The notes: generated by a model not told the origin, from the sequence alone. A stretch of DNA of 32,000 nucleotides from Propionibacterium ruminifibrarum (GCF_900289195.1 NZ_OMOH01000004.1:324456-356455); one strand, 5' to 3'; shown: positions 769 through 14,380, counted from the stretch's first letter. Made by a program: numbers and translations.

Positions 769-1905
<1,137 letters not shown>

Positions 1906-1919
1906 GGGTCGGTCACCTC

Positions 1920-3428
1920 TCAGTACGCGAAGGACATCGGGCGGTCGGTGTCGCTCGCGGCGGGAGCGACCAGTTCGGGCAGACCTTCCCTGATCGTCCG
2001 GATGAACAGCTTCAGCACGACCACGGCCACGGCGGCGTAGATCAGCGTGTACAGGACCATCGTGAGGAGCACGTCGAGTGCGCTGTTGCCCGGTGAGACG
2101 CCGGCGGCGGTGGGCAGGACGCCATAGACGATCCAGGGTTGACGGCCCATCTCGGTGAAGATCCAGCCGAAGGAGTTGGCGAACAGCGGCAGGAACGGCA
2201 GACACACCATGACGGCGGTGTAGAGACGGCCCCCGCCGGGGACACGGCCGGCGCGGGTGAGCCACAGCATGACGGCACCGATGCCGATGGCCAGGCAGCC
2301 GAGGGCGATCATGAGGCGGAAGCTGTAGAAGCTCACCATCACGTTCGGCACCGGGTCGACCGGCATGTCCCTGAGTTCGGCGGCGAATGCCTCCTGCAGC
2401 TGGTTGACCTCGCCGTCGTTGTCCCGGTAGCCCTCGTCGAGGTACTGCTGGCGCAGGTCCTGGATGCCCTGGACGGTGGCGTTCGGGTCGTGCTGGGCGA
2501 GGACCGACAGCACGTAGGGCACCTCGATGCTGAGCACCTTGTGGTAGGTGGTCTCGGCGCCCTCGCCCTCGGTGGTGATGATGGCGACGATGGAGAACGG
2601 CGCGCCCTCCTCGGCCTCGATGAGTCCCTCGGACGCGGCCAGTTTCATGGGCTGGTACTGGGTCTCGACCTGGGCCTGCAGGTCACCCGAGACGAGGGTG
2701 GCGGCGCCGGCGAACAGCAGCACCCAGGCGCCCAGGCGGGCGGACTTGCGCCACGTGTCGACGTCGGCCTGCCCGCCTGCGTCGGCCAGGGCCTCACGCC
2801 GCTTGGCGGCGAGCCACCAGCCGCTCACGCCGAGCAGCAGGGCGCCGGCGACCATGAGTGAGGCGCCGATCTGGTGCGGGAAGGTGGCGAGGAAGAAGGG
2901 ATTGGTGAGCACATCGGTGAAGCTCGACAGCTCGGCGCGTCCCGCCGCCTCGTTGTAGACGGCGCCGACCGGGTTCTGCATCCAGCAGTTGGCCGACAGG
3001 ATGAAGGCGGCCGAGGCGGTGCTGCCGAGGGCGACGAGGTAGATGCAGGCCAGGTGCAGCGCCCTGGGCAGCCGGTTCCAGCCGAAGATCCACAGGCCGA
3101 TGAAGGTTGACTCCATGAAGAAGGCGATCAGGGCCTCGAGCGCCAGGGGTGCGCCGAAGATGTCGCCGACGAACCGTGAGTACTCCGACCAGTTCATGCC
3201 GAACTGGAACTCCTGCACGATGCCGGTGACGACACCGGCGGCGAAATTGATGAGCATGAGCTTGGCGAAGAACTTCACCAGGCGCAGCCATTGGTCGTCT
3301 CGCGTACGCATCCAGGCGGTCTGCATCCCGGCGATGAGCCAGGTGATGCCGATGGTGATGGGTACGAAGAGGAAGTGGTAAACGGTGGTGATGCCGAACT
3401 GCCACCGCGAGAGAACCTCAGCGTCCAT
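1920..3428 (-). CDS. cydA: Cytochrome bd ubiquinol oxidase subunit I
   Basis: ORF-track entry 1920..3464 has a TTG start. I prefer the ATG at 3428, which gives MDAEVLSRWQFGITTVYHFLFVPITIG, the canonical CydA N-terminus. The rest is a long polytopic protein with a Q-loop-like hydrophilic insert. Confidence 0.9.
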   Translation of the reverse strand: MDAEVLSRWQFGITTVYHFLFVPITIGITWLIAGMQTAWMRTRDDQWLRLVKFFAKLMLINFAAGVVTGIVQEFQFGMNWSEYSRFVGDIFGAPLALEALIAFFMESTFIGLWIFGWNRLPRALHLACIYLVALGSTASAAFILSANCWMQNPVGAVYNEAAGRAELSSFTDVLTNPFFLATFPHQIGASLMVAGALLLGVSGWWLAAKRREALADAGGQADVDTWRKSARLGAWVLLFAGAATLVSGDLQAQVETQYQPMKLAASEGLIEAEEGAPFSIVAIITTEGEGAETTYHKVLSIEVPYVLSVLAQHDPNATVQGIQDLRQQYLDEGYRDNDGEVNQLQEAFAAELRDMPVDPVPNVMVSFYSFRLMIALGCLAIGIGAVMLWLTRAGRVPGGGRLYTAVMVCLPFLPLFANSFGWIFTEMGRQPWIVYGVLPTAAGVSPGNSALDVLLTMVLYTLIYAAVAVVVLKLFIRTIREGLPELVAPAASDTDRPMSFAY

Positions 3429-3650
3429 GGCAGGCAGGCTAGGCCCTGCGACACCCTGACGCAAAAATCAGGGATCGCACCGTTCGCGTCCGGCTGACGA
3501 GTCCGCCCCCCGAACCTCTCGACAACTGTTTAGGTCTGGCCCCAGCCATACAAAACAGCCAGAGAAATTCCTTGTCGGAGAGGATTCTTCCGGTCATTTC
3601 ACCTGTTGTGAACACGGCGCTCCCCAGCCGGGGGAGAACCCACTGGGAGG

Positions 3651-4494: not shown

Positions 4495-5580
4495 GTGAGC
4501 GCACCCCAGCCGCCGGGCACCGGCCTGCCCGCCGCCCCGAAACCCGCCGGGCGACGTCCCGTGAACCAGCGGCTCATCGTCGGCATCGTCATCGCCCTCG
4601 CCCTCGCGATGGTCGCCGCCGGCATCGTGACCAGCTGGGTGCGCGACCGCGGGACGCTGGGGAAGGCCCGGGAGGTCGTCGAGGACTACCTGACCGCCGT
4701 CGCCGAGGGGGACGCGGACCGGGCCCGCAGCCATCTGGACACCTCTCGCAACTATTCCGGGGACGACTCCCTGCTCACCGACGAGGTGCTCCGGGCCTCG
4801 AAGGAACGCGCGCCGATGAGCGGCATCGACGTCGGCGAGGCCACCAAGGATCAGGACCGATCGGCCACCTATCACGTGCCGGTCTCCTACACCGTCGGCG
4901 AGGACACGGTGTCCACCACCGTCGAGGTGCAGGTCATCAGCTCCCCCGACGATCCCGTGGTCATCAGCCTCACGCGTCTGAGGCTGGACCAGTACAGGGG
5001 TGCCGAGGTCACGGTCAACGGCGTCACCGCGCGCAGCAACGCCCCGGCCGTCTTCCCCGGCAGCTACACGGTGGCGCCCGCCAGCGAGTACCTCGAGATC
5101 GTCCGCGGCGACGTCGCGGCAACCGACGTCGCCAAGGAGGACTACACCCCGTCGAAGGAGAGCCATCTGGCCGTCTCCGAAGCAGGCGTGGAACTGTTCC
5201 GCGACAAGGTCGTCGCCGAGGCCGAGAGGTGCCTGGCCTCCACCAGGCTCGACCCGGGCTGCGGCGCCGTGATGCCCCAGCACCCGGACCCGGCCCTCTA
5301 CTTCAAGTGCGCCGAGGTCAGGGAGGGCTCGGTCCACCGCTGGCAGGAGCCCGAGGAGGCCGCCAGGCTGCACTCGGTGACACCCGAACCCAAGATCGGG
5401 TCACCGACCGTCATCAGGGCAGATGGTGACCAGCTCGGCCGCATCAGGCTCACCGCCACCTGCCGCCAGGGCGACACCTGGAGCGAACGTGAAATGGACC
5501 GGTACGACCCGGGCACCCGGTTCGGTTCCCCGTCCCTCGACCTGACCGATCCGGACCGGAAGATCATGTGGACCACCTGA
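4495..5580 (+). CDS. Uncharacterised single-pass membrane protein, tandem-paralog family, copy 1
   Basis: Frame of ORF 3799..5580, trimmed to the GTG at 4495. GGAAGGAG at 4478-4485 lies 9 nt upstream. The product then begins VSAPQPPG, like the MS(T/A)PQxPG starts of the paralogs. It has a short Pro-rich tail, one hydrophobic helix (LIVGIVIALALAMVAAGIV) and an ectodomain with all family blocks: YLTAVAEGDA, SLLTDEVL, VNGV..VFPGSY, YLEI, VSEAG..FR.KVVAEA..CLASTRLDPGCG, SVHRWQEPEEAA, TATCRQGDTW, FGSPSLDLTDPD. Confidence 0.8.
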   Translation: MSAPQPPGTGLPAAPKPAGRRPVNQRLIVGIVIALALAMVAAGIVTSWVRDRGTLGKAREVVEDYLTAVAEGDADRARSHLDTSRNYSGDDSLLTDEVLRASKERAPMSGIDVGEATKDQDRSATYHVPVSYTVGEDTVSTTVEVQVISSPDDPVVISLTRLRLDQYRGAEVTVNGVTARSNAPAVFPGSYTVAPASEYLEIVRGDVAATDVAKEDYTPSKESHLAVSEAGVELFRDKVVAEAERCLASTRLDPGCGAVMPQHPDPALYFKCAEVREGSVHRWQEPEEAARLHSVTPEPKIGSPTVIRADGDQLGRIRLTATCRQGDTWSEREMDRYDPGTRFGSPSLDLTDPDRKIMWTT

Positions 5581-5647
5581 CCCGCCGGCACGCCCTGTCC
5601 GGGCCGGCCCGTTCGTCCGGCTCGCCCCGACCAGGAAGGATCATTCC

Positions 5648-6871
5648 ATGAGCACACCCCAGCCACCGGTCCACGGCGCACCGGGCCCGTTCCCGATGGG
5701 CGGCCAGGCCCCCCAGAACGCGTGGCCCGGCCAGGCCCCCCAGAACGCGTGGCCCGGCCAGGGCCCCTATGCGGGGGCCTGGCCCACGCCGGGCGGCACG
5801 CCCGCTCCGACGGGTCGCACCACTCGACCAAGGAGGACCCGGGCAGTCATCATCATCGGCGCGGTCGTGCTGGCGCTGATCATCGGCGCCGCCCTGACGC
5901 GCACCGCCCTGGGTGGCTCCGACGAGGACCTGTCCAGGAAGATCGTCGAGGAGTACCTCACCGCGGTCGCCGAGGGAGACGCCGACAAGGCCAAGGGCTT
6001 CCTGTCCTACTCCTCCGCTGACGAGTCCCTGCTCACCGACGAGGTGCTCCGCGTCTCGAACGAGCTCGCCCCGATGACGAACATCACCGTCGGCAGTGTC
6101 ACAGCGAGCAGCGAACACGCCAACGACTACCTGGTGCAGGCCTCCTATGACATCGGGGACGAATCCGTCTCGACCACCATGACGGTGTTCATCACCAGCA
6201 GGAGGTCACTCCTGCCCAGCAAGAAAATCGTGACCATCACGGACCACACAAGACTGTCACTGAGTTTGTTCGAAGACGTCGACTTCACGGTCAATGGCGT
6301 CACTCCCGACACGGACTATCCCGACGTCTTCCCCGGCACCTATGAGTTGGCGGTGAGCAACGAGTACCTCGAGATCACCGGCGACCCCATCGCGGCCCTC
6401 GACCCGGCCGGGAACGCCTATTCCCCCTTCGACACGGGTCCCGACGGGCGGCGCGAGAAGAACACCGTGGGCGTCTCCGAGGCCGGCGTGCAGATGTTCC
6501 GCGAGAAGGTCGTCGCCGAGGCCACCGAATGCCTGGCCTCCACCAGGCTCAGTCCCGGCTGCGGCACCTGGGTGCCGCAACGCCCGGACAGAGAGTTACG
6601 ATGCGAAGAGGTCCGCGAGGACTCGGTCCACCGCTGGCAGGAGCCCGAGGAGGCCGCCAAGCTGCAAAATGTCACGCCCGTCCACAGGCTCGGTCCGCCG
6701 ACAACCCTCGAGGCCGTTTCCACCCAACTCGGCGACATCGAGGTCACCGCCACCTGCCGCCAGGGCGACACCTGGACCGAACAGCGACTGTACAGCTATG
6801 AGGCCACCTATTTCGGCACCGCCTCCATCGACCTGACCGACCCGGACCTCGCGGTCGTCTGGGGCCGCTGA
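5648..6871 (+). CDS. Uncharacterised single-pass membrane protein, tandem-paralog family, copy 2
   Basis: ORF-track entry of 407 aa. The product starts MSTPQPPV and has a Pro/Gly/Gln/Trp-rich tail with a duplicated GQAPQNAWP. The predicted helix is AVIIIGAVVLALIIGAAL, followed by the conserved ectodomain blocks. AGGAAGGA lies upstream of the ATG. Confidence 0.85.
   Translation: MSTPQPPVHGAPGPFPMGGQAPQNAWPGQAPQNAWPGQGPYAGAWPTPGGTPAPTGRTTRPRRTRAVIIIGAVVLALIIGAALTRTALGGSDEDLSRKIVEEYLTAVAEGDADKAKGFLSYSSADESLLTDEVLRVSNELAPMTNITVGSVTASSEHANDYLVQASYDIGDESVSTTMTVFITSRRSLLPSKKIVTITDHTRLSLSLFEDVDFTVNGVTPDTDYPDVFPGTYELAVSNEYLEITGDPIAALDPAGNAYSPFDTGPDGRREKNTVGVSEAGVQMFREKVVAEATECLASTRLSPGCGTWVPQRPDRELRCEEVREDSVHRWQEPEEAAKLQNVTPVHRLGPPTTLEAVSTQLGDIEVTATCRQGDTWTEQRLYSYEATYFGTASIDLTDPDLAVVWGR
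5702..5755 (+). repeat. Perfect 27-nt in-frame tandem duplication (ggccaggccccccagaacgcgtggccc x2) inside the copy-2 tail
   Basis: 5702-5728 and 5729-5755 are identical, followed by a partial third unit (ggccagggcccc). Each unit encodes GQAPQNAWP. Confidence 0.95.
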
Positions 6872-6981
6872 GCACGCCGGCACGGCCCACGTGCGACCCG
6901 GGCGCCGCCCGCACGGTTCATGACACGCCCGGCCGGCGACCGCGCGCCTGGGATGATGGTGCCGCGGAGAGGAGCACGCCC

Positions 6982-8202
6982 ATGAGCACACCCCAGCACC
7001 CCGGCGACGGCGACGCCGGGCAGCCGGCCGACTGGGCGAGCCGGCCGGCCAGGCCCGCCGACGGCTGGTGGCCGAGCCCAGCGGCGGCCGGCCCGGGCCA
7101 CGAACCCACGGCCGCAGCACCTGCGTCCGTGCAGGGCGCCGTCACCGGGCGGGCGGGGCGCCCGGCTCTCGCCGTGGCGTCCACCGGCGGATCGAGGGCG
7201 ACGGTCGTCATCGTCGCCGCGGTCCTCCTGGCCATGCTCATCGCCGCCGTCACGCTGAGCACCGCCGTGAACTCGAACGAGGGCCGCGCCAGGCGGATCG
7301 TCAGGGAGTACCTCACCGCGGTCGCCGAGGGGGACGCCGAGAAGGCGCGCGGCTACCTGAGCGAGGTCGACGACGACTCCCTGCTCACCGGCGAGGTGCT
7401 CCGCGTCTCGAACGAGCTCGCCCCGATGACCGACATCTCCGTCGGCAGGGTGAGGCACTCGCGCTACATCAGCACGGACTACCAGGTGCGGGTCTCCTAC
7501 CGGATCGGAGACGAGACGGTCTCGACCATCATGGATGTGTCCCTCCCCCGCCAGAACTCGTCCACCGCGGTCAAGAGCGCCGGTGTCGCCAGCCTCTCCT
7601 CGCTGTGGCTGACCGGGTTCGGCGACATCGACGTCACGGTCAACGGCGTCATCCCCGACACGAACAGACCGGCCGTCTTCCCCGGCAACTACAAGATCGC
7701 GGCGAGCAACGAGTACCTCGAGATCACCGGCGACCCCATCGCCGCCACCGACCCGTCCGAGCACAGTTACTCCGCCGCTGCCGCCGGCAATGAGTTGGCC
7801 GTCTCCGAGGCCGGCGTGCAGATGTTCCGCGACAAAGTCATCGCCGCCGCCCGGGAATGCCTGGCCTCCACCAAACTCAGCCCCGGCTGCGGCACCAAAG
7901 TGCCCCAGTACCCGAACAACAATCCACGGTGCGAGGAGGTCCGTGAGGACTCCGTCCACCGTCGGCAGGAACCCGAGGAGGCAGCCAAACTGGAGTCGTT
8001 CACGCCCAAGCTCAAGGCCGGGGCCCCGATGACCATCACGGCCGGCCCCACCGATCTCGGCTACTTCACGCCCACCGCCACCTGCCGCACGGGCGACACC
8101 TGGACCGAGCAGCAGTTGTACGGCCCCACCGAGGCCACTCGTTTCAGCGCCCCGTCCATCGACCTGACCGACCCCGACCTCGCGCTCGCCTGGGAGGGCT
8201 GA
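6982..8202 (+). CDS. Uncharacterised single-pass membrane protein, tandem-paralog family, copy 3
   Basis: ORF-track entry of 406 aa. The product starts MSTPQHPG. The tail contains DWASRPARPADGWWP and the predicted helix is VVIVAAVLLAMLIAAVTL. The conserved ectodomain blocks are present. GGAGAGGAG lies upstream. Confidence 0.85.
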   Translation: MSTPQHPGDGDAGQPADWASRPARPADGWWPSPAAAGPGHEPTAAAPASVQGAVTGRAGRPALAVASTGGSRATVVIVAAVLLAMLIAAVTLSTAVNSNEGRARRIVREYLTAVAEGDAEKARGYLSEVDDDSLLTGEVLRVSNELAPMTDISVGRVRHSRYISTDYQVRVSYRIGDETVSTIMDVSLPRQNSSTAVKSAGVASLSSLWLTGFGDIDVTVNGVIPDTNRPAVFPGNYKIAASNEYLEITGDPIAATDPSEHSYSAAAAGNELAVSEAGVQMFRDKVIAAARECLASTKLSPGCGTKVPQYPNNNPRCEEVREDSVHRRQEPEEAAKLESFTPKLKAGAPMTITAGPTDLGYFTPTATCRTGDTWTEQQLYGPTEATRFSAPSIDLTDPDLALAWEG

Positions 8203-8210
8203 GTACCGCC

Positions 8211-9242
8211 ATGAGACCGCACACCACCCCGAACACCACGAAGCGCACGGCCGTCGTCGCTACCGTCCTCCTGTCCCTGGTCATCGGTGTCGCGCTGGCG
8301 ACCGCCATCTGGCACCGGGCCGCCATCGGGCACCGGGACGGGCAGGCGGCCAGGGAGACGGTCGGGGCCTATCTCACCGCCGTCGCCGAGGGAGACGCCG
8401 AAACGGCCCGCGGCTATCTGGGCGAGGTCGACGACGACTCCCTGCTCACCGACGAGGTACTCGAGGAATCCCGTGCGCGCGCCCCCATGACCGACATCAC
8501 CGTCGGCCGCGCCACCAAGAACTGGCTCGAAGACGGCGTCTACGACGTGCAGGTCGCCTACACCCTCGGGGAGGAGGTCTCCACCGTCATGCGAGTGGAG
8601 ACCGCCGGTGGCCTGGTCATCACCAGCGTGTCCTGGTTGTGGCTGGCCGAGTTCACCGACGTCGACTTCACGGTCAATGGCGCCATCCCCGCCACCGATG
8701 AACCGAACGTCTTCCCCGGCAGCTATCTGCTGGAGGCCAGCAACGAGTACCTCGAGATCGCCGGCGAGCCCATCGCGGCCACGGACACGAGCATCGCGCC
8801 CTACGGCCCCTCTGTGGAGAACGAGCTGGTCGTCTCCGAGGCCGGCATCCAGATGTTCCGCGGCAAGGTCGTCGCCGAGGCCACCGAATGCCTGGCCTCC
8901 ACCAGGCTCGACCCCGGCTGCGGAATCCACGCGATACCCCAGTACCCCGACTCGGTACCCGAATGTGAGGAGATCGGTGAGGACTCCGTCCAACGCCACC
9001 TGGACGCCGGCCAGGCAGCCCGGCTCGAAACGGTGACCCCCGAACCCGACCATTGGGAGCCGACCATCATCAAGGTCCTGTTCACCGAGCTCGGCCGCTT
9101 CACCGTCACCGTCAGTTGCCGCACCGGCGACACCTGGAGCAGCCGCGAGATCGCCGACTACAGCCAGATCCGGGGCCTCTTCTTCGGTTCCCCGTCCATC
9201 GACCTGACCGACCCCGATCTCGCGGTCGTCTGGGACAGATGA
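8211..9242 (+). CDS. Uncharacterised single-pass membrane protein, tandem-paralog family, copy 4 (lacks the Pro-rich tail)
   Basis: ORF-track entry of 343 aa. The ATG lies only 8 nt after the copy-3 stop. About 12 residues precede the helix AVVATVLLSLVIGVALATAI. The ectodomain blocks are conserved (YLTAVAEGDAETARGYL, VSEAGIQMFRGKVVAEATECLASTRLDPGCG, FGSPSIDLTDPDLAVVW). Confidence 0.85.
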   Translation: MRPHTTPNTTKRTAVVATVLLSLVIGVALATAIWHRAAIGHRDGQAARETVGAYLTAVAEGDAETARGYLGEVDDDSLLTDEVLEESRARAPMTDITVGRATKNWLEDGVYDVQVAYTLGEEVSTVMRVETAGGLVITSVSWLWLAEFTDVDFTVNGAIPATDEPNVFPGSYLLEASNEYLEIAGEPIAATDTSIAPYGPSVENELVVSEAGIQMFRGKVVAEATECLASTRLDPGCGIHAIPQYPDSVPECEEIGEDSVQRHLDAGQAARLETVTPEPDHWEPTIIKVLFTELGRFTVTVSCRTGDTWSSREIADYSQIRGLFFGSPSIDLTDPDLAVVWDR

Positions 9243-9361
9243 CCCGCCACACCGACACGGGCCGCCGCGACCACCTGGGGCACACCCCCTGTTCCGACGC
9301 AGTCCGCTCTGGCGAGGCGGCCCTGTCCCTGCCATGATGGCCCGCAGGAGAGGACCCCACC

Positions 9362-10507
9362 ATGAGCGCACCCCGGCAGTCCGGCGCAGACGGCGCCGGA
9401 GCGGCCCACGACTGGGCGAGCCGACCGGCCCGGCCCTCCGACGGCTGGCGGCCGGGACAGACCCCGCACACCGGGGTACCCGCCCCGGCGGGCCCGGCCG
9501 GCACGCCGCAGCCCGCGCAACTCATCGCCATCGGCGCGCTCGTCCTCACCCTGCTCATCGGCGCCATGACGGCAGCAATCGTCGCGGACCGCTCCGCCCT
9601 GCGGACCGCGGAACGGGCCGCCCAGGAGGCCGCCCGGACCTATCTCACCGCCATCGCCGAGGGGGACGCCGAGACGGCCCGCGGCTACCTGGAGGTCGAC
9701 GACGACTCCCTGCTCACCGACGAGGTGCTCCGGGTCTCGAACGAGCTCGCCCCGATGACCGACATCACCGTCGGCGAGGTGACCAGGGACAGACGTATCG
9801 TCACCCACCAGTGGGTGCGTGTCGGCTACCGCGTCGGTGGCGTGGAGGTCTCCGCCCTGTTGAGCGTGAGTCGCTCCGATGATCCGACCATCTTCAACGC
9901 CTCCGAGCTGTCGCTGCACGGGTCCCCCGACGTCGGTATCACGGTCAACGGCGCCATCCCCGCCACCAGCTCGCCGACCGTCTTCCCCGGCACCTACGAG
10001 CTGGCGTCCAACAACGAGTACCTCGACGTCACCGGAGAGCCCATCGCCGCCATCGACCCGACCGAGTACTTCTACGATTCCCTCGGCACGGAGAACGAGG
10101 TGGTGGCCTCCGAGGCCGGCGTGCGCATGTTCCGCGAAAAAGTCGTCGCCGCAGCCCAGGAGTGCCTGGCCTCCACCAGACTCGACGCCGGCTGCGGCAT
10201 CGACGTGCCCCGGTACCCGGAGGGCCTCTCGGAGTGCGAGGAGATCCGGGAGGATTCCGTCCACCGCAGGCAGGACTCCAGCCAGGCGGTCCTGCTCGAA
10301 ACGGTGACCCCCCGCTTCAAACCCTTCGAACCGAACGCCCTCTGGGCTCCCTTCATCGACCTCGGCCGCGTCGACATCACCGTCACCTGCCGCGTGGGCG
10401 ACACCTGGACCAATCGTGAGATCACCAGTCACGGCAGGTGGCGCTTCTTCGGTTCCCCGTCCATCGACCTGACCGACCCCGACCTCGCGGTCGCCTGGAA
10501 CGCCTGA
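9362..10507 (+). CDS. Uncharacterised single-pass membrane protein, tandem-paralog family, copy 5
   Basis: ORF-track entry of 381 aa. The product starts MSAPRQSG. The tail contains DWASRPARPSDGWRP and the predicted helix is LIAIGALVLTLLIGAMTAAIV. The conserved ectodomain blocks are present. CAGGAGAGGA lies upstream. Confidence 0.85.
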   Translation: MSAPRQSGADGAGAAHDWASRPARPSDGWRPGQTPHTGVPAPAGPAGTPQPAQLIAIGALVLTLLIGAMTAAIVADRSALRTAERAAQEAARTYLTAIAEGDAETARGYLEVDDDSLLTDEVLRVSNELAPMTDITVGEVTRDRRIVTHQWVRVGYRVGGVEVSALLSVSRSDDPTIFNASELSLHGSPDVGITVNGAIPATSSPTVFPGTYELASNNEYLDVTGEPIAAIDPTEYFYDSLGTENEVVASEAGVRMFREKVVAAAQECLASTRLDAGCGIDVPRYPEGLSECEEIREDSVHRRQDSSQAVLLETVTPRFKPFEPNALWAPFIDLGRVDITVTCRVGDTWTNREITSHGRWRFFGSPSIDLTDPDLAVAWNA

Positions 10508-10737
10508 CCCCACCAGCACCGACCCGGCTCACCGAGGGCGGGCTTCATGGCCGGCCCTCTGAGATGCCGGGGACGTGCGGCGCCGACGCATGCGGCCGAT
10601 CAGCGCCGTCGGCGGCCTGTTCAGCGCGAGACAATCAGGGCATAGTAGGGGTCATCACCCATGAACACCCTATTCATGGCATGGCCAGAACCAGGGGATC
10701 CCATCGTGGACACCGCGTTCCGGACGGCGCATTCTCC

Positions 10738-10743
10738 TAGAAT
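10738..10743 (+). promoter_or_regulatory. Candidate -10 hexamer (TAGAAT) for copy 6
   Basis: TAGAAT fits the actinobacterial TANNNT -10 pattern. It lies 30 nt upstream of the 10774 ATG, with GGAGAGGA in between. It sits in a lower-GC 266-nt spacer, the only long gap in the array. No convincing -35 was seen. Confidence 0.3.
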
Positions 10744-10773
10744 GGCTATCCCACAGGAGAGGACCAACCCCCT

Positions 10774-12162
10774 ATGAGCACACCTCAGCAGCCGGGCGCA
10801 GGCGGCGCCGGGCAGAACAACTGGGCGAACCAGCCCTCCCAGCCGAACAGCGGCTGGCAACCCGGCCAGGGCGCCCCGAGCCAGAACCCCATGGGAAACC
10901 AGGGCGCCCCGAATCCGAACGCGCCGTGGCAGCAGCAGCCGCAACAGGGATACCGGCCCCAGCAGGGATACGGGCAGCCGGCGACGCAGCCGCAGCCCAC
11001 CGCCTTCACCGCCCAGGGCCCCACGCAGCCCAACCCGGCACAGCAGCCCCAGCAGGGCGCCTGGCCGGGCCAGCCCAACGCCTACCCTGGGCAGCCCAAC
11101 GCCTACCCGGGGCAGACCGCGTACGCGGGTGCACCGGCCGGCCCCGCGGGTTCCCCGCCCAAGTCGAACTCCAAGAAACTGGTCATCATCATCGGCGCGA
11201 TCGTCCTTGCGCTGATCATCGCCAGCGTGCTGGCCTTCGCCCTCCTCCGGGGCGGTTCGAAGGAACGGAAGGCCAAGCAGGCCGTCCAGGGCTACATCAC
11301 CGCCATCTCCGAGGGCGACGCCAACAAGGCCAAGGGGTACCTTTCCGACTCGCTGAGCGACACGTCCCTGCTCACCAACGACGTGCTCAAGGATTCCAAC
11401 GAGCGTGCACCGATCACGGACATCGCCGTCGAGGACGCACAGCAGGTCACCGGCTCCGACATCGAGTACCTGGTCCCCGTCAGCTACACCATCGACGACA
11501 CGGCCACCCGAACCTCGCTCGTGGTTTCCTTCTACAGCAACAACGATCCCGTCGTGGAGGCGCCCTCCACCCTGCCGCTGAGCCTGCTCGAGGATGTTGA
11601 GATCCAGGTCAACGGGGTCACGCCGGACAGCGATTCGCCGTACGTCTTCCCCGGGAGCTACAACGTCACCACCGACAACAAGTACCTGACGATCGAGGAC
11701 GGCGAGATCGAGGCCTACAGCCCCGAAGAACTCATTCTCGACATCCCTGATGTCGCGGTCTCCGAGGCAGGCAAGCAGATGTTCCGCGAGAAGGTCGTCG
11801 CCGCGGCCACCGAGTGCCTGGCCTCCAACCGGCTCGACTCCGGCTGCGGAGAACCGCTCCCGGCCACCTGGGAGACCGGCGAGACCCTCGACGAGGGCAC
11901 CGTCAAGCGTTCGCAGAACGCCGCGGAGGCCGCCAAGCTGCAGTCGGTGTCCCCCTCTCTCGGCCTCAAGGGACCGACCATCCTCTCGGCGTCCTACGCC
12001 GACCTCGGCACCATCGACACCACGGTCGGCTGCAGCAAGGACGGTCAGCACGGCGAGTGCAGCGTGCACAAGACCCTCTTCGGGGTGGAAACGGGCTGGT
12101 ACTTCGGGTCCCCGTACATCGACGTGACCGACCCGGACCTCGTGGTCAAGTGGGAGGACTGA
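10774..12162 (+). CDS. Uncharacterised single-pass membrane protein, tandem-paralog family, copy 6 (most divergent, longest Gln/Pro-rich tail)
   Basis: ORF-track entry of 462 aa. The product starts MSTPQQPG. It has a roughly 135-aa Q/P/G/N-rich tail with NNWANQPSQPNSGWQP and GQPNAYP repeats, and the predicted helix LVIIIGAIVLALIIASVLAFAL. The ectodomain keeps YITAISEGDA, SLLTNDVL, VNGVTPDSDSPYVFPGSY, VSEAGKQMFREKVVAAATECLASNRLDSGCG and FGSPYIDVTDPDLVVKW. Confidence 0.85.
   Translation: MSTPQQPGAGGAGQNNWANQPSQPNSGWQPGQGAPSQNPMGNQGAPNPNAPWQQQPQQGYRPQQGYGQPATQPQPTAFTAQGPTQPNPAQQPQQGAWPGQPNAYPGQPNAYPGQTAYAGAPAGPAGSPPKSNSKKLVIIIGAIVLALIIASVLAFALLRGGSKERKAKQAVQGYITAISEGDANKAKGYLSDSLSDTSLLTNDVLKDSNERAPITDIAVEDAQQVTGSDIEYLVPVSYTIDDTATRTSLVVSFYSNNDPVVEAPSTLPLSLLEDVEIQVNGVTPDSDSPYVFPGSYNVTTDNKYLTIEDGEIEAYSPEELILDIPDVAVSEAGKQMFREKVVAAATECLASNRLDSGCGEPLPATWETGETLDEGTVKRSQNAAEAAKLQSVSPSLGLKGPTILSASYADLGTIDTTVGCSKDGQHGECSVHKTLFGVETGWYFGSPYIDVTDPDLVVKWED
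11068..11130 (+). repeat. 21-nt in-frame tandem repeat (GQPNAYP, GQPNAYP, GQTAYAG) in the copy-6 tail
   Basis: 11068-11088 is ggccagcccaacgcctaccct and 11089-11109 is gggcagcccaacgcctacccg. A degenerate third unit spans 11110-11130. Confidence 0.9.
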
Positions 12163-13525: not shown

Positions 13526-14251
13526 TCATCGCCGCAGCAGGCCCGCAGCCAGTTCCCCGGCCCAGCTGTACTCGGTCATCTCGATGACACGTGACGGGGC
13601 GAGTTCGGCGCCCCAGCCGATGCCGGCGCATGAGACGGCGATGGTGATACAGACGTCCTGCAGGCCGGGGACGAGCCATTCGGGTTCGGCCTGCTCGTTG
13701 ACGAGCTCGCAGAACTCGTGGCGGTCGCCGGCGAGGGCGGCACGGACGACGAGCATGGCGTAGGCGCGGGCGGCGACCTCGGCCTGCTGCTCGGACTCGG
13801 TGACGAGCCGCTGTCCCAGTGTCGTGGCCACGAGCTGGGGAAGATCCTCGGGGGCCAGACCGGCACCGCGTTCGGCCAGCCAGTCCGGCACGAGCACGGG
13901 CTCGCCGGAGTCGACGGCGGCCCGCATCCGCGTGCCGAGGTCGGTGAGCATGCTGCACGCCAGTGACAGCGCGCCCACGAACTGGCAGACGAAGGTGACC
14001 CCATAGGTCAGCCAATTGCTCTCGTCGGAGTCGCCGATGCCCTGGCCCGCCTCGACGGCGCGAGCGTCGGACAGGAGCACGCTCTTGTTGAGCCGCCATG
14101 CCTCCTCCCAGGGAACCGTCACGGAGTAGGGCTGGTAGTGGATCTCGCCGTTCTCGTCCGGAGCGGGCGTGGGCACGGGCTCGGCGTCGGGGTCGCCCCA
14201 CCACTCACCCGTGATCGGGTAGGTGATCTTCTTGTCATGGCTCATGCTCAT
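13526..14251 (-). CDS. Acidic hypothetical protein, no recognisable domain
   Basis: ORF 13526..14323 has strong G/C third-position bias throughout. The start is uncertain: the ATG at 14251 (MSMSHDKKITYPITGEWWGDPD, GAAGGG upstream) or the ATG at 14296. It follows the histidine kinase gene on the same strand. Confidence 0.65.
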   Translation of the reverse strand: MSMSHDKKITYPITGEWWGDPDAEPVPTPAPDENGEIHYQPYSVTVPWEEAWRLNKSVLLSDARAVEAGQGIGDSDESNWLTYGVTFVCQFVGALSLACSMLTDLGTRMRAAVDSGEPVLVPDWLAERGAGLAPEDLPQLVATTLGQRLVTESEQQAEVAARAYAMLVVRAALAGDRHEFCELVNEQAEPEWLVPGLQDVCITIAVSCAGIGWGAELAPSRVIEMTEYSWAGELAAGLLRR

Positions 14252-14380
14252 GGTCAGGCCCTTCGCGTGCGGGACTCGTGGAGTGTTGGTCATCATCGTC
14301 AGGCGCCCGGCGGGCAACCGCACTGCGCCGAGACTACCGGTCGGCTCAGTGCGGCCCTCAGCCGCCCCGACGACTTCGGT

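Follow-up and report, generated by a model that had tools for sequence, protein, structure and literature searches.

The window analyzed here, a 32,000-nucleotide stretch of the Propionibacterium ruminifibrarum genome (GCF_900289195.1, NZ_OMOH01000004.1:324456-356455), contains an array of six intact, complete open reading frames (ORFs) that lie head to tail on the + strand between positions 4495 and 12162 (Table 1). We conclude that this array arose by lineage-specific tandem duplication of one ancestral gene (copy 6), and that its products extend a known kind of protein, that is, membrane-anchored ectodomain proteins of the NTF2-like/DUF4878/Rv0361 type; the anatomy of the proteins and the evolutionary history of the array are, taken jointly, assigned with high confidence. 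The original prediction, made from the DNA of the window, had described a six-gene paralog array of single-pass membrane proteins, and the six ORFs, each with one transmembrane helix, bear this out; the motif blocks that it named are all found in the six copies.

The ectodomains of the other copies share 42-55% identity with that of copy 4, and 79 alignment columns are invariant among the six; at the DNA level, the conserved coding blocks occur six times with a spacing of 1.03-1.66 kb and identities of 60-96%, and the GC content is uniform across the array region. Several copies are represented among independently deposited proteins: the products of copies 2 and 5 match the P. ruminifibrarum proteins PROPJV5_1407 (P0013) and PROPJV5_1411 (P0007) at 100% identity, those of copies 3 and 4 have 99% identity with proteins from a Propionibacteriaceae metagenome-assembled genome (MAG), and copy 1 is 94% identical to an independently called metagenomic protein of the same 361-residue length (P0012).

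The history of the array is read from synteny, copy number and phylogeny. The flanking genes are syntenic within Propionibacterium, and a single copy, located between the exonuclease and kinase/FKBP genes, is found in both P. acidifaciens and an uncultured Propionibacterium. In a neighbor-joining tree, copy 6 groups with these single-copy genes and with copy 6 of P. australiense; copies 1-5 form a derived clade that is older than the split between P. ruminifibrarum and P. australiense, and the duplications in Brooklawnia and Arachnia are independent. The pattern of Cys residues (vide infra) agrees with this history. The six copies are not equivalent: copy 6 is ancestral and copies 1-5 are lineage-specific. 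P. australiense encodes orthologs of copies 3, 4, 5 and 6 (that of copy 3 at L001:8385-9635; L001 is the strain NML98A072 record). Its copy 1/2 position is occupied by a remnant, in which a paralog N-terminus is fused to the last ~50 residues, together with genes for a Fic protein and a zeta toxin; because of this replacement, we regard the array as a site of gene loss and of toxin-antitoxin-type insertion.

Table 1. Coordinates of the six array genes, of their parts and of the corresponding P. australiense locus (array positions count from the first nucleotide of the window; aa, amino acid positions in each protein; domain boundaries in copy 4 are approximate and model-based).
Feature	Coordinates	Strand	Product	N-terminal tail	Transmembrane helix	Ectodomain	Cys
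Copy 1	4495-5580	+	361 aa, GTG start (ORF and translation)	aa 1-26	aa 27-45 (DNA 4573-4629)	aa ~49-361	246, 256, 272, 323
Copy 2	5648-6871	+	407 aa	aa 1-65	aa 66-84 (DNA 5843-5899)	aa ~88-407	295, 305, 319, 370
Copy 3	6982-8202	+	406 aa	aa 1-73	aa 74-92 (DNA 7201-7257)	aa ~96-406	293, 303, 317, 368
Copy 4	8211-9242	+	343 aa	no long tail	aa 15-33 (DNA 8253-8309)	DNA ~8319-9239	
Copy 4, NTF2-like domain	8319-8642	+					
Copy 4, small beta domain	~8643-8830	+					
Copy 4, C-terminal alpha+beta disulfide domain	~8831-9239	+					
Copy 5	9362-10507	+	381 aa	aa 1-54	aa 55-73 (DNA 9524-9580)	aa ~77-381	268, 278, 292, 343
Copy 6	10774-12162	+	462 aa, ancestral-type copy	135 aa, Pro/Gln/Gly-rich	aa 136-154 (DNA 11179-11235)	aa ~158-462	348, 358, 420, 429 (ancestral hairpin-staple pattern)
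N-terminal motif DNA	4495-4518, 5648-5671, 6982-7005, 9362-9385, 10774-10797						
P. australiense NML98A072 (L001), copy 1/2 position	5323-5850	-	Fic/DOC				
P. australiense NML98A072 (L001), copy 1/2 position	5952-6488		paralog remnant				
P. australiense NML98A072 (L001), copy 1/2 position	6530-7054		unknown ORF				
P. australiense NML98A072 (L001), copy 1/2 position	7047-8075		zeta-toxin				

A single strongly hydrophobic segment of 19 residues (Kyte-Doolittle mean 2.4-3.2) is present in each of the six proteins; a tail of 14-135 residues precedes it, and ~305 residues follow. The statistics of the wider family (166 representatives that passed our filters) agree: a single hydrophobic segment is present in 165; the 15 residues on the N-terminal side of the helix have a net charge of +2.6, compared with -0.1 on the other side, and the charge is higher on the N-terminal side in 154 proteins and lower in 3. 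The tails (median length 73 residues; 22% Pro, 16% Gly, 13% Gln) contain 5 Cys in 18,478 residues; the ectodomains contain 2 or 4 each. We place the tail inside and the ectodomain outside because of the flanking charges across the family (the positive-inside rule); charge bias and Cys distribution together are strong indirect evidence for a predicted N-in/C-out (type II) topology with an oxidized outer domain. An extracytoplasmic location of the Cys-bearing domain had been proposed and agrees with the rule; exposure on the cell surface had also been proposed, but an ectodomain of ~300 residues on a membrane anchor would be expected to lie within or under the wall.

The extreme N-terminus, MS(T/A)PQxPG, is shared by five of the six copies, as originally reported; in copy 1 it is read from the GTG start (fMet-SAPQPPG), and copy 4 is the exception, with neither the MSTPQ start nor the long tail. 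Past these first residues the disordered tail is not alignable, and the conserved N-terminus may be a short linear motif (e.g., a Thr-Pro phosphosite). A start of the form M-S-T/A-P-(Q/N/H/P)-x-P-G is found in 32 of the 157 long-tailed family representatives, including those from Arachnia and P. acidifaciens. One metagenomic member of 768 residues (P0158) has two copies of DUF7822 in place of the Pro-rich cytoplasmic tail, the sole domain fusion seen in the family.

The ectodomain of copy 4 was modeled with AlphaFold2 as a whole (predicted local distance difference test score, pLDDT, 90; predicted template-modeling score, pTM, 0.79) and, using a 116-sequence alignment, for its last 199 residues (pLDDT 93, pTM 0.87). 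The secondary-structure map of the model suggests three parts: an alpha3-beta NTF2-like domain (ectodomain residues ~1-110); a small all-beta domain (~111-172) that would carry the VNG...VFPG.Y...YLEI motifs; and an alpha+beta part (~173-307) predicted to start with a 20-residue helix (SEAG.QMFR.KV.A.A..CLAS) and to continue through a long loop into a five- to six-stranded sheet. The residues invariant across the family are L48, G134, Y136, C191, C201, R226 and W305 (numbering of the copy 4 ectodomain); the family-wide conserved residues include no catalytic His/Asp/Glu/Ser constellation, and family conservation reveals neither a CXXCH motif nor a conserved His/Met ligand.

The four Cys residues had been described as conserved in position; this is so in copies 1-5 only, because copy 6 lacks the Cys at the third position (the 'RCEE' Cys) and instead has an extra Cys nine residues past the 'TxxC' Cys. 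The first pair (C1-C2, in CLAS..GCG) is universal in the family. The ancestral second pair, found in copy 6, Brooklawnia and Herbiconiux, is predicted to be a hairpin staple formed by the TxxC Cys and the Cys ~9 residues on; in copies 1-5, the strand Cys is predicted to pair with the new 'RCEE' Cys in the long loop, and all five derived copies, like their orthologs, have this putative rewiring as a fixed feature. That the pairs are oxidized as disulfides is probable, on the indirect evidence that ectodomains contain 2 or 4 Cys with C191/C201 invariant and that the tails are nearly devoid of Cys.

The first ectodomain block had been likened, by eye, to the NTF2/DUF4878 domains, and Foldseek and profile searches bear this out at the level of fold. 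Approximately 125 residues of the model align with the NTF2-like N-terminal domain of Enterococcus faecium PBP5 and of PBP2a from methicillin-resistant Staphylococcus aureus (E 2e-3, probability 1.0, ~127 columns); the alignment with 3K7C, the DUF4878 reference structure (Cj0202c), is weaker (TM-score 0.50 on the target, E 0.07), and the lower-ranked matches include the MonBI/MonBII epoxide hydrolase, SnoaL2 and a ring-hydroxylating dioxygenase beta subunit (E 0.07-0.15). With the family profile, the transmembrane-plus-NTF2 region of PBP5 is matched among the PDB sequences (E 6e-4). The NCBIfam model Rv0361_Cterm (NF051431) matches all six copies (E 4e-7 to 3e-4) over the transmembrane helix and the first 60-120 ectodomain residues (~120 in copies 1 and 6), although the scores (27.7, 21.0, 28.2, 22.7, 24.3 and 30.4 bits for copies 1-6) are all below its 37-bit cut-off. 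The hidden Markov model (HMM) for DUF4878 (PF12870) detects copy 6 only (12.6 bits, E 0.17; gathering cut-off 24.1 bits). Among 116 diverse family members, two match DUF4878 (E >= 0.0025) and three match MecA_N (PF05223; E >= 0.0015), and no Pfam family is matched by more than three; weak matches to HemY_N and FliL were rejected as artifacts of a transmembrane segment plus helix. The first ~110 residues are thus, as modeled, an NTF2-like domain of the DUF4878/MecA_N/Rv0361 type that fails the membership thresholds of the curated families, and the statement that the proteins belong to no recognized family stands: scans of the copies with the Pfam and NCBIfam models yield nothing that reaches a cut-off, and homologs are named 'hypothetical' with few exceptions ('DUF4878 domain-containing' or 'nuclear transport factor 2 family').

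The known relatives share part of this design. In PBP5 and PBP2a, as here, the membrane anchor leads directly into the NTF2-like domain, with the opening helix 'V..Y/F..AL..GD...A'; however, the transpeptidase/PBP domains are absent from all six copies, in which the small beta domain and the unmatched disulfide-stapled domain come next. DUF4878 proteins have the same extracytoplasmic alpha+beta cone, and some family members are annotated accordingly, but they are mostly small lipoproteins or secreted proteins, whereas the array family has a transmembrane anchor, a long disordered tail and ~200 additional residues. Rv0361 of Mycobacterium tuberculosis also combines an N-terminal tail, a single transmembrane helix and an extracytoplasmic NTF2-type domain, although the Rv0361_Cterm model has 140 positions only and leaves the beta and C-terminal domains uncovered; the protein was located to the membrane fraction and, by immunoelectron microscopy, to the cell surface, and its function is unknown (PMC2891697).

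The C-terminal ~200 residues (the small beta domain and the disulfide-stapled head) are confidently modeled and have no recognizable relative. With the 199-residue model as query, the best Foldseek match in the PDB has an E of 0.078 (probability 0.16, TM-score 0.17) and the best in BFVD an E of 0.75; single-sequence and profile searches of the PDB sequences otherwise return only the PBP5 region already described. In the 116 family members, Pfam matches nothing in this region. Because hhalign comparisons of the N-terminal, middle and C-terminal parts reveal no internal duplication, a second copy of the NTF2 domain is not detectable in the predicted C-terminal domain. A match to a Photorhabdus PDB chain, with two 38-residue repeat-like stretches (each E ~2), was judged insignificant. 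The 'VNG..P..VFPG.Y' middle domain may recall, by eye, a PEGA/carboxypeptidase-regulatory-like beta sandwich; the models give this lead no support.

The family is neither exotic nor rare and spans the Propionibacteriales and Micrococcales, with relatives in the Mycobacteriales. In an HMMER scan of 1.84 billion representatives with a profile of the six ectodomains, we obtained 1,123 clusters (50% identity) at E <= 1e-3; of these, 614 have E <= 1e-10 and 146 have E <= 1e-30. The clusters that we inspected have the same tail-helix-ectodomain layout. Members occur in the Propionibacteriaceae (Propionibacterium, Brooklawnia, Arachnia, Microlunatus and Propionicicella), in the Microbacteriaceae (Microbacterium, Herbiconiux, Cnuibacter and Rhodoglobus) and in Ruania. 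The literature on Rv0361, DUF4878 and P. ruminifibrarum contains, as far as we found, no functional study of the family.

Megaplasmids of Mycolicibacterium and Tsukamurella encode divergent relatives in which the first Cys pair is retained along with the N-terminal and middle domains. One such protein, WP_052429199.1 of Mycolicibacterium rufum, is 30% identical over residues 11-201 and shares the transmembrane helix, the YLQALSDGDADKA block, VFPG and the C....PPGC pair; its C-terminal half, however, has diverged, and neither the second Cys pair nor the terminal D..DP.L.V.W block is present. Its gene, annotated 'DUF4878 domain-containing protein', is located on a 264-kb mobilizable plasmid of M. 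rufum (NZ_CP092428.2; L021 725-8609), where, unlike the Propionibacterium locus, it adjoins genes for FHA-domain, sensor-domain, Ser/Thr kinase and WXG100 proteins. Two further homologs, from Microbacterium sp. NPDC008134 (L008, 10001-10582) and a Propionibacterium MAG (L009, 10001-10567), align over ectodomain residues ~12-203 only (the N-terminal and middle domains and the beginning of the C-terminal one), which suggests a shorter or C-terminally divergent subfamily. A single tblastn match in a phage collection (MT835574.1, 'UNVERIFIED: Bacteriophage sp.') was rejected as a link to phages: this 86-kb record (L020; 72-75% GC) looks like a mislabeled fragment of an actinobacterial chromosome, in which genes for a FAD_binding_2/Succ_DH_flav_C dehydrogenase, an MFS transporter, a metallophosphoesterase and an oligopeptide ABC transporter surround the homolog.

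The DNA between the genes gives little support to the proposal that a whole expression cassette was duplicated, with a shared 5' untranslated region and ribosome-binding site. The exact CAGGAGAGGACC string is present upstream of copies 5 and 6 only; the remaining copies have ordinary Shine-Dalgarno variants (GGAAGGAG, AGGAAGGA, GGAGAGGAG and GGGAGGG), the intergenic segments (8-266 nt) are barely alignable beyond the Shine-Dalgarno sequence, and similarity extends only a few bases past the coding sequences. Copy 4, which starts 8 nt past the stop codon of copy 3, has no upstream region of its own; a promoter/terminator consensus scan of the array was empty, and an Rfam scan of the array found no family.

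The array is flanked by core genes, as originally described: cydB, cydA and the gene for an RNase_T-type exonuclease lie upstream on the opposite strand, and the downstream genes encode a PRK-family kinase and an FKBP, a two-component system together with an ABC transporter, and also a P-type ATPase and DnaB. An ORF of 265 codons beside the FKBP gene (13526-14323, minus strand) has no Pfam match; it is strongly conserved, with 94% identity in P. australiense and a ratio of non-synonymous to synonymous substitution rates (dN/dS) of 0.09. Across the eight lineages searched, we found no conserved gene neighborhood: in Ruania and one Microbacterium, the family gene follows sugar-catabolism operons; in Arachnia, Brooklawnia and Cnuibacter, the context is different again; and in Herbiconiux (L005, L015 and L016, ~7001-8245), the homolog is located between hemE and hemA in a haem-biosynthesis cluster.

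Selection on the array was assessed by dN/dS measured against the P. australiense orthologs, with bootstrap ranges and with similar dS across the gene sets. The pooled value for copies 3-5 is 0.69 (0.58-0.82; copy 3 alone, 0.75; copy 5 alone, 0.70), that for copy 6 is 0.37 (0.28-0.50), and that for seven neighboring genes is 0.20 (0.17-0.24); the derived copies thus evolve ~3.5 times faster at non-synonymous sites than the neighboring genes. All three parts of the ectodomain are raised (0.56-0.74), and 20-codon windows with values nominally >1 are located at residues 61-90 (in the putative NTF2 sheet), 101-130, 191-210 and 281-300. The array genes are, then, real genes under purifying selection that is either much weaker than that on their neighbors or mixed with positive selection.

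For function, we tentatively favor, and give nearly an even chance, the reading that the proteins act without catalysis, as binding or scaffold proteins at the outer face of the membrane, the copies having diversified in binding. The proteins would be type II, single-pass (N-in/C-out) members of one large, unnamed actinobacterial family, built from a PBP5/PBP2a-like membrane-proximal domain and a novel disulfide-locked head; with its NTF2 cone and this head, each protein would hold a component of the envelope, or else a partner protein, inside the wall zone, and the duplicated copies would differ in what each binds. A non-catalytic role is preferred because no conserved His/Asp/Ser set is present and because extracellular NTF2 domains of the DUF4878 type have been judged to be non-catalytic binders of small molecules or partners (PMC3924330). 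Several points weigh against this reading: no conserved neighborhood ties the family to a process (Ruania, Arachnia, Microbacterium, Cnuibacter, Brooklawnia and Herbiconiux all differ); a missing catalytic motif is negative evidence only; and the raised dN/dS could result from relaxed constraint on redundant copies rather than from diversification of binding.

The rates also bear on a different explanation, in which the ectodomains form a conflict-driven repertoire: phages, bacteriocins or host factors able to reach the membrane would use them as targets or be misled by them as decoys, and duplication and rapid change would be diversifying selection to escape or capture such agents. The excess of dN/dS in copies 3-5 over their neighbors, the windows above 1, the independent tandem duplications in Propionibacterium, Brooklawnia and Arachnia, and the turnover of the array, with Fic and zeta toxin genes inserted in P. 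australiense, all speak for such a conflict, and the expanded lineages are, by their record names, host-associated (rumen, oral, bovine lesions). We nevertheless consider it unlikely: no PADLOC-DB family was detected at E <= 0.1 in the four copies tested, a PHROGs scan of the copies gave no match, and the sole 'phage' homolog is the mislabeled bacterial contig; gene-wide dN/dS is below 1, the wall probably covers the ectodomain, which is short and anchored in the membrane, and most members of the family are single-copy genes of free-living soil Microbacteriaceae. A bolder combination seems to us decidedly doubtful, namely, that the C-terminal ~200 residues are a new extracytoplasmic fold and, in addition, that the array is a diversifying, membrane-proximal receptor repertoire in which the MSTP motif and tail would couple an outside ligand to signaling of the Ser/Thr-kinase/FHA type.

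If the same rates reflected redundancy, copies 1-5 would be drifting under relaxed constraint, copy 6 alone would carry the function, and the array as such would have no separate biology. Copy 6 does have the lowest dN/dS of the copies and the ancestral Cys pattern, the copy 1/2 positions are lost or truncated in P. australiense, and related species manage with a single copy. The six ORFs are all intact, however; P. ruminifibrarum and P. australiense have both kept copies 3, 4 and 5 since they separated, with dN/dS significantly below 1 (bootstrap upper bound 0.82), the 79 columns remain invariant, and the predicted rewiring of the second disulfide is fixed in the five derived copies and their orthologs, so that we regard general drift as improbable.

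The NTF2 fold occurs in enzymes, and the proteins could act on an envelope lipid or glycan as NTF2-like catalysts (SnoaL-type cyclase, epoxide hydrolase or isomerase-like) or through a new catalytic C-terminal domain; the lower-ranked Foldseek matches and the family-wide invariance of R226 and Y136 are compatible with this. However, those matches are weak and reflect the common fold, no conserved His/Asp/Glu/Ser set accompanies the two residues, extracellular NTF2-like domains are generally non-catalytic (PMC3924330), and genes for a substrate pathway were not found nearby in any lineage examined; we consider an enzymatic function very improbable.

Gene context raises the idea that the proteins assist, as accessory factors at the outer face of the membrane, in the assembly of haem or of the respiratory chain, to which we give only a slight chance. 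The Propionibacterium copies adjoin cydDC-cydBA (window 769-3464) and the Herbiconiux gene lies within the hem cluster, but haem-related adjacency is confined to these two lineages and is absent from five others (Microbacterium, Ruania, Cnuibacter, Brooklawnia and Arachnia); the family has no CXXCH motif and no conserved His/Met ligand, and the gene orientation is divergent from, or independent of, that of cyd. VirB8 and TcpC are bitopic proteins with periplasmic NTF2-like domains, and the array proteins have a similar layout (a single transmembrane helix between a short or variable N-terminus in the cytoplasm and an NTF2-like ectodomain), but a channel component of a conjugation or secretion system is disfavored to the point of being hardly credible: no secretion ATPase, coupling protein or relaxase was found in the window or in the related loci examined, neither family appears in the Pfam results or among the 50 Foldseek matches listed, and the locus is chromosomal core.

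Nothing in this analysis upsets expectations or opens a long-standing question; it delimits a large family, including members from host-associated genera, that no Pfam or NCBIfam model captures. If the favored reading is correct and the family binds an envelope component or a partner protein, it would be a new module in actinobacterial envelope biology; otherwise, it would be one more DUF-type family, and its present value is mainly that of a defined target for structure determination and genetics. For the fold itself, the P. ruminifibrarum array is a natural experiment in which one ancestral gene is located beside five derived, putatively disulfide-rewired copies that evolve 3.5-fold faster, and their comparison could reveal its functional surfaces.

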